This document shows, in pieces, positions 35,601 through 38,200 of a stretch of 64,000 bases of DNA (its first letter is position 1; every line of letters begins with the position of its first letter). The DNA lies in the sequence record OP292222.1; one strand, written 5' to 3'. Both the position numbers and the translations under genes were made by a program. The notes under the pieces are model-generated. The model was given only the letters and a program-made list of their open reading frames with translations, had not been told where the DNA came from and did not search any database. Source of the DNA: Escherichia phage Esco_phi_B-01.

Positions 35601-35788
35601 TGGACTTATTTGATATGTTTGTCATTCCGGACCCTGAGCCTGAAACAACTCAGGAGCCGCCTATTGACCTTGTCAATGAACTTGATATGATTATACAGAA
35701 GCACGGCTTTAAGTTGCCTAAAGATGCCCTGGCTGACCTAGCTTCTTACTATCAAGACCCTCCACCCTGGGCTCCTTGGGTAAAATAA
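35600..35788 (+). CDS. hypothetical acidic protein (62 aa)
   Basis: ORF. Confidence 0.45.
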   Translation: MDLFDMFVIPDPEPETTQEPPIDLVNELDMIIQKHGFKLPKDALADLASYYQDPPPWAPWVK

Positions 35789-36021
35789 TGAATTGGCTAA
35801 CTAATATACCTACATCGGCGTTGGATATCGACCGTAAACAAGCTCGTAAGGAAACCGAGCAAAAAAATATTCAGGCAAAAGCTCCTAAGATTGAAGTTGA
35901 GAAGCCAGAAACAAAAAGCTCTTATGAATCAAAAAGCTCCTATACTTCATATACCCAATCCTCATTAGGCATGGCTGCCGACATTGCGGTGTTTGGCGTC
36001 CCACTTGGTGTGTTTAAGTAG
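35788..36021 (+). CDS. hypothetical protein (77 aa), C-terminal hydrophobic
   Basis: ORF. Confidence 0.45.
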   Translation: MNWLTNIPTSALDIDRKQARKETEQKNIQAKAPKIEVEKPETKSSYESKSSYTSYTQSSLGMAADIAVFGVPLGVFK

Positions 36022-36049
36022 TTTACATCTCCTCCCTTCATGTTATAAT
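36021..36049 (+). promoter_or_regulatory. early promoter (GTTTAC, 17 bp, TATAAT)
   Basis: motif. Confidence 0.6.
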
Positions 36050-36073
36050 GACCTCTAAATCACTGGAGGTCAT

Positions 36074-36643
36074 ATGAACATCGAACAAAAATGTCTTTAT
36101 CAAGACCGAATCAATTCCAAATTTTCAAAATCTGAACAAGCGTTGTTAGAGAAATGTCTGGATGCCAAAAAAGACCCTAACTTACATTATGACCTAGACA
36201 AACTAGTTCGTAAACATGTTACTTCGGCCGTTCCGGTAGAGCTTTATCGTGGGATTACCACCAGAGAACTTGAGCAATTAGAGCTCCTTTCAGTAGGGTG
36301 CCACTGGTCTCCTGGTCGGGTTACTTCTTTTAGTACACAATACTCTCAGGCTTGCCAGTTCGCAGGGTCATGGGAATATGGAACCAAAACCATTTTAAGT
36401 CTCAGGAATGCACCCTTCATTTTTGACTACTACAATCATGCTATCGACCTTGTTCTTGCAGGGAATGCGGACGAACTTGAAATAGATGAAACCCGTATTG
36501 ACCTCTATGATATGGTCGAAACCGAATGTGAGTTCATGGTCTCTAGTCTATCACGGTTCGAGATTGTGGAAATCGAAACTATCAAAAGGGACCCATACGA
36601 CATCGAGTACAAAATAATTCATTTAAAAATGTTGGATTTTTAG
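36074..36643 (+). CDS. modB: ADP-ribosyltransferase, ModB-like
   Basis: R-S-ExE triad: LYRG, SFS, ECE; position upstream of dda as in T4 (which paralog is modA vs modB is assigned by order only). Confidence 0.7.
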   Translation: MNIEQKCLYQDRINSKFSKSEQALLEKCLDAKKDPNLHYDLDKLVRKHVTSAVPVELYRGITTRELEQLELLSVGCHWSPGRVTSFSTQYSQACQFAGSWEYGTKTILSLRNAPFIFDYYNHAIDLVLAGNADELEIDETRIDLYDMVETECEFMVSSLSRFEIVEIETIKRDPYDIEYKIIHLKMLDF

Positions 36644-36672
36644 TTTACAGGCAAGGATGCTTATGTTACTAT
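36643..36672 (+). promoter_or_regulatory. early promoter (GTTTAC ... TACTAT)
   Basis: motif. Confidence 0.55.
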
Positions 36673-36697
36673 CTTTCTATCAACTGAGGAGAATAAT

Positions 36698-37312
36698 ATG
36701 TTATATCCAAGCCATAAATTAGCAGAATTTATCAACAATGCCAAATGCGATGATTTCCGTGAGAATACTCAGATAGAAATTGATGAGGTGTATTCTGATT
36801 TAGAACAGAGCACGCTCTGGCAGTGTATGGAAAATAAACCTGATTCTATCCAGGAAACTCTGAACAAAATTATTCGTAAGAACCTGACTTCTGTAGTGCC
36901 TGATAAGCTCTATCGCGGTATATCTAAAAAGACCCTGAAGTATCTAGAGTCCACAATGTGTGTGGGTGCGGTAATTGAATTCGACCGCGTGATGAGCTTC
37001 TCTAAAGACTTCAACGTAGCAAGGAATTTCGCATCTTATAACTTCTACGGCACATTTAATATCTTTTGTATTAATGATGCGCCATTTGTGTACAATTATC
37101 AGGAAGAAATCTTTAAAATGTTATGTGCTGCGCCCCCTGAAGAGTTCCCAGGCGCATTTCCTGAATCTACCCGTGTAGCAAACTTACAATTAATTAATGA
37201 TGAAGATGAGATGATGTTCCCTGCGGGAACTACGCTGCGCGTAGACTCTATTGAGAGAAATCCTAAATGGAATAATTACACCATTTGGAATCTTTCCGTT
37301 CTTTCTTACTGA
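36698..37312 (+). CDS. modA: ADP-ribosyltransferase, ModA-like
   Basis: R-S-ExE triad: LYRG, SFS, EDE; paralog of upstream gene. Confidence 0.7.
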   Translation: MLYPSHKLAEFINNAKCDDFRENTQIEIDEVYSDLEQSTLWQCMENKPDSIQETLNKIIRKNLTSVVPDKLYRGISKKTLKYLESTMCVGAVIEFDRVMSFSKDFNVARNFASYNFYGTFNIFCINDAPFVYNYQEEIFKMLCAAPPEEFPGAFPESTRVANLQLINDEDEMMFPAGTTLRVDSIERNPKWNNYTIWNLSVLSY

Positions 37313-37381
37313 ACCACCCGGTTTAATTGAAAGGCAAAGTCCTTGATTCATTATACCGTTGAAAATTTAAAGCAAAAAAGT

Positions 37382-37410
37382 GTTTACTTTATTAAGCAAC
37401 ATGATACTAT
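37382..37410 (+). promoter_or_regulatory. early promoter, PeSL-like
   Basis: motif; repeat family. Confidence 0.6.
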
Positions 37411-37450
37411 AGACCTATCAACTAATCGTCCGTAAGATGAGAAAAATATC

Positions 37451-38200
37451 ATGCCTACTATTAAAACTAGCGATGAATTTGAGTTAAAGGTTTACAACCG
37501 CCGCAAACACACCAAAGCTTCTGCTTATAAACGTGGTAAGGACTTCAATCTGTCTAGTAAGTATGTTCGTAGACTTCTCGAACAAAAAGTGTGCGCTTAT
37601 TCAGGCGAGTACTTTGATGAAAATTCAGTTAATGATAAGATTTCATTTGAACGTTTTAACAACGATATCGGCTATATTGAGGGTAATGTAATCCCAGTTA
37701 AAGTTAAGTATAACAGCTTACGTGCCGATTTGTCCCTTGATGAACTGAAACGTGCCCAGACTCGTTTAGCAGTTCGTATTTCAGGTAGTTCTAAAATGCC
37801 TAATAGTTTTAAAGTTACCCCTGATAATTATTATAAAATCCGTAAAATCGTTAAAAATATAAAAGATACCCAAAGAGGTCTTAAAAAACGTGAAAAACGT
37901 CTTAAAGACCTTATTAAATCGGGAGCTACTGATAAGACTCCTTCTGTTATCGCGGTTAAGGCCCGTATCCACGGTTCTAACGCTTCAATCGGTACTATGG
38001 AAAAAGGTCTTAAATCTTTAATTGGTGGGCCTGACTGGCGCGTCAAGTTTAAATTGTCTGAAGCAGAAACGCGTTACGATATGTATGATAAAATTATTCA
38101 AGGTCTGGAGCGTTTAGAACACCTTTCTTTTATTGACAAATTGAAGTTGAAAAAAGGTCTTCCGCTGAATGCTTCAATTTTTTCACTGATTAGAGGTTAA
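37451..38200 (+). CDS. hypothetical basic protein (249 aa); Srd-like by position upstream of dda
   Basis: synteny only. Confidence 0.5.
   Translation: MPTIKTSDEFELKVYNRRKHTKASAYKRGKDFNLSSKYVRRLLEQKVCAYSGEYFDENSVNDKISFERFNNDIGYIEGNVIPVKVKYNSLRADLSLDELKRAQTRLAVRISGSSKMPNSFKVTPDNYYKIRKIVKNIKDTQRGLKKREKRLKDLIKSGATDKTPSVIAVKARIHGSNASIGTMEKGLKSLIGGPDWRVKFKLSEAETRYDMYDKIIQGLERLEHLSFIDKLKLKKGLPLNASIFSLIRG

Follow-up and report, generated by a model that had tools for sequence, protein, structure and literature searches.

Two tandem Mod-family ADP-ribosyltransferase genes, annotated modB and modA in JS98-type phages, in Escherichia phage Esco_phi_B-01

The DNA analysed here is a stretch of 64,000 nucleotides (nt) from Escherichia phage Esco_phi_B-01 (sequence record OP292222.1), called the window in the following. 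It carries two open reading frames (ORFs) in tandem, ORF1 upstream and ORF2 downstream, which an earlier note had read as paralogous ADP-ribosyltransferases corresponding to ModA and ModB of phage T4, with intact catalytic triads and each behind an early promoter of its own. The tandem pair was found as described there: both genes lie on the plus strand, at 36074-36643 and 36698-37312, and their products are paralogs with 31% identity over 184 residues (E = 2e-26). The two genes and the features that belong to them are listed below.

36021..36049, plus strand: T4-type early promoter motif before ORF1 (GTTTACA, spacer, TG-extended TATAAT; 11/12 consensus matches)
36065..36069, plus strand: GGAGG, the Shine-Dalgarno sequence of ORF1, separated from the ATG by 4 nt
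36074..36643, plus strand: ORF1, the modB-side (upstream) Mod-family ADP-ribosyltransferase gene, 189 amino acids (aa)
36248-36250, 36326-36328, 36524-36526 and 36530-36532, plus strand: ORF1 motif codons for R59, S85, E151 and E153
36643..36672, plus strand: T4-type early promoter motif within the 54 nt that separate ORF1 from ORF2 (GTTTACA, spacer, TG-extended TACTAT, then CTATCAAC)
36686..36691, plus strand: GAGGAG, the Shine-Dalgarno sequence of ORF2, separated from the ATG by 6 nt
36698..37312, plus strand: ORF2, the modA-side (downstream) Mod-family ADP-ribosyltransferase gene, 204 aa
36914-36916, 36995-36997, 37202-37204 and 37208-37210, plus strand: ORF2 motif codons for R73, S100, E169 and E171
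37382-37410, plus strand: early promoter motif before srd

The 2.1-kilobase (kb) region of the locus is 97% identical at the DNA level to phage JS98, and its source is a Dhakavirus (T4-type, Straboviridae); about 50 other Dhakavirus genomes match the region at 90-97% DNA identity. In the RefSeq record of JS98, the same two ORFs are labelled modB (the counterpart of 36074-36643, 189 aa) and modA (the counterpart of 36698-37312, 204 aa). The ORF1 protein is 97% identical to JS98 ModB (EpJS98_gp017, YP_001595146) and the ORF2 protein 100% identical to JS98 ModA (EpJS98_gp016, YP_001595145), with strain-level substitutions only, of which five are nonsynonymous in ORF1 and none in ORF2. The counterparts in JS98 and in other Dhakavirus phages are thus the same genes in the same place, and both promoter motifs are common to them. 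The flanks of the JS98 pair are modA.3, modA.2, srd, dda.1 and dda, in the order found in T4, and the order modA.2, modB, modA, srd, dda.1, dda of the window likewise matches T4, with the PHROG matches of the neighbours in agreement. Since JS98 RefSeq annotates the same two ORFs as modB and modA, the pair is already known from public records of JS98-type phages, and its identification is correct but ordinary. A literature search for JS98-specific work on the mod genes gave nothing useful. The pair very likely represents modB (upstream) and modA (downstream) of a JS98-like Dhakavirus, encoding single-domain mono-ADP-ribosyltransferases of the R-S-ExE clade (cholera-toxin/C3-like), named after the arginine, the serine and the two glutamates of the catalytic motifs.

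Membership in the Mod family is supported by several searches. Both proteins match PHROG 832, "RNA polymerase ADP-ribosylase" (E = 2.6e-37 and 1.5e-44 for the two proteins), and their similarity to T4 ModA and ModB is significant over the full length. In BLASTP, ORF1 matches T4 ModB with 34% identity (E = 5e-27), and ORF2 matches T4 ModA with 39% identity over 166 residues (E = 8e-26) as well as T4 ModB (E = 3e-27). The precomputed Pfam accession PF26816 is attached to all database homologs. An exhaustive profile search of 1.84 billion representative proteins returned only 104 clusters when the cut-off was E <= 1e-3 and 41 when it was 1e-10. The family is compact and restricted for the most part to T4-like phages; at its weak end the search reaches toxin-like giant proteins. 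Two results of the domain searches weigh against membership. ORF2 scores 12.4 bits against Pfam PF03496 (ADPrib_exo_Tox), under the cut-off of 23.4 bits, and an NCBIfam scan of the window proteins returned nothing relevant, although T4 ModA and ModB themselves have no match there either. The local Pfam-A scan gave nothing significant, with sub-threshold matches of ORF2 to ADPrib_exo_Tox and DRAT only and no ADPrib_exo_Tox match for ORF1. Neither of these local libraries, Pfam and NCBIfam, settles membership; the family goes unrecognised by them, T4 ModA and ModB included. That both ORFs are genes for Mod-family R-S-E transferases can be regarded as practically certain.

The catalytic motifs are complete in both proteins, as had been claimed. 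ORF1 carries VELYRG (R59), VTSFST (S85 and S87) and ETECEF (E151 and E153), and ORF2 carries KLYRG (R73), VMSFSK (S100 and S102) and NDEDEM (E169 and E171). The arginine, the first serine and both glutamates occupy invariant columns when the two proteins are aligned with T4 ModA and ModB, and they are invariant also across 26 family members. The aligned positions are the following.

Arginine: T4 ModB R73, T4 ModA R72, ORF1 R59, ORF2 R73
Glycine after the arginine: T4 ModB G74, T4 ModA G73, ORF1 G60, ORF2 G74
First serine: T4 ModB S99, T4 ModA S96, ORF1 S85, ORF2 S100
First glutamate: T4 ModB E171, T4 ModA E163, ORF1 E151, ORF2 E169
Second glutamate: T4 ModB E173, T4 ModA E165, ORF1 E153, ORF2 E171

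The essential residues of the T4 enzymes were taken from later papers that cite the primary mutagenesis study, that of Tiemann et al. from 2004. According to these later papers, ADP-ribosylation and RNA attachment were both abolished in an R73A/G74A double mutant of T4 ModB (PMC10468400), and ADP-ribosylation in vivo was abolished by E165A in T4 ModA (PMC11404850). The R-S-ExE motif of both window proteins aligns with these experimentally essential residues. The earlier note had proposed an alignment with the T4 proteins and had named loss of the catalytic glutamate as the outcome that would speak against it; no such loss is seen, because the essential T4 residues align with intact residues of ORF1 and ORF2, E165 of ModA with E153 and E171, respectively. 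By analogy with the T4 enzymes, both proteins are very probably catalytically active.

Structure prediction agrees with this assignment. AlphaFold2 models, built on a 26-sequence alignment, reached a predicted local distance difference test score (pLDDT) of 90.3 and a predicted template modelling score (pTM) of 0.83 for ORF2, and a pLDDT of 87.2 and a pTM of 0.82 for ORF1, in which a loop at about residues 131-140 is of low confidence. Each model shows a protein of about 200 aa that forms one domain with the ADP-ribosyltransferase fold. The arginine lies in the first core strand, the serine in the next strand, ahead of a helix, and the ExE motif just before a strand; in the models, this placement is the layout of R-S-E transferases. 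The top Foldseek matches in the PDB were exclusively R-S-E ADP-ribosyltransferases (C3bot, Certhrax, XopAI, VahC, HopU1, Vip2, iota Ia, CDTa and ExoS) at a probability of 1.00 and E values of about 1e-7 to 1e-5 (best 1.8e-7), and the best matches in BFVD, a collection of predicted viral structures, were Mod proteins of T4-like phages with template modelling (TM) scores of 0.84-0.85. Sequence-based queries of the PDB, made with the single proteins and with the profile of 26 sequences, gave no meaningful relative; the one match, to XopAI at the ExE region, was weak (E = 0.5). No structure of the Mod family appears to have been solved, and a 2025 preprint states that ModB lacks a crystal structure (10.1101/2025.07.11.664405).

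Selection was assessed from the window, JS98, IME08 and dhaeg, in all of which both genes are intact. The ratio of nonsynonymous to synonymous substitution rates (dN/dS) was 0.05-0.11 for ORF1 and 0.04-0.13 for ORF2. Both genes are therefore under strong purifying selection, which fits functional enzymes and speaks against a decaying copy. The proposal that one copy is a pseudo-enzyme without catalytic activity, retained for binding, is very unlikely on these grounds. Nothing specific favours it; ORF1 lacks about 16 N-terminal residues of T4 ModB, and its model has the low-confidence loop mentioned above, but both copies and 26 relatives retain all four motif residues without change, both copies have confidently predicted ADP-ribosyltransferase folds, and dN/dS is about 0.1 in both. 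This candidate was rejected. Even less can be said for the idea that the ORFs and their motifs are chance features and not genes, which can be virtually dismissed: at least 80% of the 2.1-kb region is present in 50 phage records, tblastn finds a homolog in 1067 records, and the purifying selection and the strong matches to PHROG 832 and to the fold stand against it as well.

Both genes lie in an early region between modA.2 and srd, and transcription signals were sought with the promoter pattern GTTTAC-N15-18-TAYDAT. There are 18 occurrences in the window, every one on the plus strand, against 0.41 expected by chance, and none of 100 shuffled sequences reached 18. The promoters of ORF1, ORF2 and srd all have a TG-extended -10 element. 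A start-region motif that is common to many early promoters here, the one given above for the spacer, follows the ORF2 and srd promoters and is lacking from the ORF1 promoter. The -35 element of the ORF1 promoter abuts the TAG stop of a preceding 77-aa ORF. The hexamers of the ORF1 promoter are conserved in JS98, dhaeg and IME08, and those of the intergenic promoter do not differ among four Dhakavirus genomes, in which three spacer positions vary. With motifs that are enriched, strand-specific and conserved, the claim that each gene stands behind its own early promoter was borne out at the level of sequence. A scan for terminators found none between or directly after the two mod genes, and its three matches in the region are at chance level. 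ORF2 is probably transcribed from both promoters, as no terminator-like site separates the genes.

Across the window, the 18 promoter sites span 986 to 55239 (plus strand). They show an extended early-promoter architecture consisting of an A-rich upstream stretch, GTTTAC and the TG-extended -10 element, often with agacCTATCAAC just downstream of the -10 element.

The arrangement differs from that of T4, in which only modB has such a promoter and modA overlaps modB by 4 nt, while ORF2 lies behind a 54-nt spacer with an early promoter motif. In the 44-nt spacer of Gaprivervirus there is no promoter motif, and in Mosigvirus a near-consensus GTGTAC...TATTAT is present. Judged from these motifs, the putative internal promoter of ORF2 is a modest lineage-specific difference from T4, because modA of T4 lacks such a promoter.

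A comparison with known enzymes helps to delimit the pair. T4 ModB (NP_049636, 207 aa) resembles ORF1 in fold class and in its upstream position between modA.2 and modA behind an early promoter of its own. ORF1 is 18 residues shorter, mainly at the N-terminus, and reads S-F-S and E-C-E where T4 ModB reads S-F-T and E-Q-E. T4 ModA (NP_049635, 200 aa) resembles ORF2 in its downstream position beside srd. The third T4 enzyme, Alt (NP_049811, 682 aa), which is injected from the head, follows the same R-S-E catalytic logic; its SNEMEV segment with the essential E577 (PMC11404850) aligns with NDEDEM of ORF2, and Alt proteins appear among the distant fold matches. Alt is, however, about three times larger than the two proteins, is carried in the phage head and has its gene elsewhere in the genome, and an hhalign alignment with T4 Alt gave E = 0.089 over 21 columns around ExE, which is not significant. 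An Alt-type head-packaged enzyme was thus rejected on size (189 and 204 aa versus about 680 aa) and for want of significant similarity. C3bot, Certhrax, Vip2, iota Ia and CDTa (Pfam PF03496) share the fold and the motif layout (Foldseek TM about 0.5, E about 1e-6 to 1e-7). These C3-like and binary toxins are only 10-16% identical in sequence to the Mod proteins, with a Pfam score under the cut-off, and the Mod proteins differ from them by another helical N-terminal part and by having no secretion or translocation partner.

The correspondence of the pair to T4 ModA and ModB is supported by PHROG 832, BLASTP, gene order and the predicted R-S-E fold. It is less clear which copy corresponds to which T4 gene. 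ORF1 scores 89 bits to T4 ModB versus 35 bits to T4 ModA. Several scores weigh against a simple assignment of the downstream copy to ModA: ORF2 reaches 86 bits to T4 ModA versus 90 bits to T4 ModB, a profile of the downstream clade scores T4 ModB at 121 bits versus 92.5 bits for T4 ModA, and T4 ModB in turn scores 78 bits to ORF1 versus 82 bits to ORF2. A tree built by neighbour joining with 200 bootstraps unites the downstream copies of Dhakavirus, Gaprivervirus and Mosigvirus at 100% support, but joins the resulting clade to T4 ModA at 34% only. The deep nodes have 5-48% support, so ModA/ModB orthology is not settled by the tree. The ModA label of ORF2 is based on gene order and a one-way best match: the downstream copy always adjoins srd, and the best matches of T4 ModA outside Tequatrovirus are all proteins of the downstream clade, at 60-86 bits versus 43 bits for T4 ModB. 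These matches fit orthology with a fast-evolving T4 ModA, and one old duplication, after which T4 ModA diverged fast, is the most economical reading. The earlier correspondence to T4 therefore stands for family membership and does not extend to placing ORF2 with ModA over ModB, and for annotation it should be borne in mind that neither these names nor the targets they imply are transferable from T4 by sequence alone. As the scores of ORF2, of its clade and of T4 ModB are ambiguous and the tree is weakly supported, the transfer of T4 targets to each copy is uncertain, a further point against the simple assignment; that the targets of both enzymes match those of their T4 namesakes has, by analogy, about an even chance.

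The mod-srd locus is mosaic, as seen from window positions 36074-38200 and the related loci L003, L004, L005 and L011. The upstream Mod protein of Gaprivervirus is 31% identical to ORF1 and groups with the single-copy protein of Jiaodavirus at 76% bootstrap support, whereas the downstream copies are 65-84% identical. Within a genus, the downstream gene occurs as divergent alleles: in dhaeg, the downstream copy is 83% and the upstream copy 95% identical, and for SP18 and EAWsc9 these values are 67% and 95%. The srd gene has been swapped as well, its product having 74% identity to the Mosigvirus protein in SP18 and 79% to the Dhakavirus protein in EAWsc9.

These patterns bear on a rival reading in which both enzymes are active but their targets do not match those of T4 ModA and ModB one to one, with the downstream clade acting on ModB-type or new targets and the upstream slot being exchangeable. 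The upstream slot could then be a cassette occupied by various Mod lineages whose host or defence targets differ. Such a reading would account for ORF2 and its clade being at least as close to T4 ModB as to T4 ModA, and for some records, automated annotations and UniRef naming ORF2 homologs modB; it would also accommodate the remote upstream copy of Gaprivervirus beside more similar downstream copies, the divergent downstream alleles within one genus, as in dhaeg, and the single mod gene found at this position in Gelderlandvirus, Karamvirus, Jiaodavirus and Krischvirus. It has to be set against the conserved gene order, with the downstream copy always beside srd, and against the best matches of T4 ModA in the downstream clade, and it is possible but on the whole unlikely. 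A more pointed version, in which the mod locus is a site for exchangeable cassettes and not a fixed ModB/ModA pair, so that the targets of ORF1 and ORF2 differ from those of T4, is doubtful. In that case, the upstream slot may hold at least three deeply diverged lineages (T4, Dhakavirus/Mosigvirus and Gaprivervirus/Jiaodavirus types), the downstream gene may circulate as divergent alleles even within a genus and may have gained its own early promoter in Dhakavirus, and the differing host targets would possibly include defence proteins.

For the preferred reading, a modB/modA pair of a JS98-like phage, we infer activity, timing and targets from homology to T4, the literature on which is the source for all three (PMC2988021, PMC10468400). 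Both enzymes most likely modify host proteins with ADP-ribose at an early stage of infection. The sigma-70 RNA polymerase of the host would transcribe both genes within the first minutes, ORF1 from its own early promoter and ORF2 from its own promoter and by read-through. NAD+ would be bound through the arginine of strand 1 and the Ser-x-Ser strand, and the second glutamate of the ExE loop would transfer ADP-ribose to arginines of host proteins. With T4 as the model, the downstream enzyme would most likely modify Arg265 of the RNA polymerase alpha subunit and the upstream enzyme S1, EF-Tu and trigger factor; the latter may also attach NAD-capped RNA.

Some further observations concern translation of the pair and its neighbours. 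The T4 early endoribonuclease RegB cuts at GGAG. Because both Shine-Dalgarno sequences contain GGAG, the mRNAs of the mod genes may be RegB targets. The annotated modA and modB starts in SP18 (L004 2468-3115) and IME08 (L012 759-1343 and 1371-2012) lie upstream of the conserved starts, which are ATG codons after a Shine-Dalgarno sequence at position 2501 of L004 and positions 774 and 1398 of L012; the annotated starts are probably mis-annotations. The 77-aa ORF before ORF1 (35788-36021, plus strand) sits between modA.2 and modB and has a TAATG stop-start overlap with modA.2. It is unannotated in JS98 RefSeq, has no counterpart in the T4 gap and is called hypothetical in SP18 and dhaeg; it matches PHROG 14077 (function unknown) with E = 6.5e-41 and ends in a hydrophobic C terminus, LGMAADIAVFGVPLGVFK. 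Downstream of the pair, the Srd homolog (37451-38200, plus strand) matches PHROG 1400 with E = 3.7e-92, and its residues 6-128 give weaker PHROG matches to HNH endonuclease and endonuclease VII (E about 1e-15). A search of the whole 64-kb window with Rfam at gathering thresholds found no family that reaches the cut-off.

The Mod family is a textbook case of host takeover by phages, and the pair carries little weight as a discovery. What is new, besides the ambiguous orthology, is evolutionary detail: the locus shows gain of a promoter and swapping of alleles between related phages. ModB, which attaches RNA, is now used as a tool for bioconjugation, and ORF1 and ORF2 are intact, diverged candidate variants of such enzymes.

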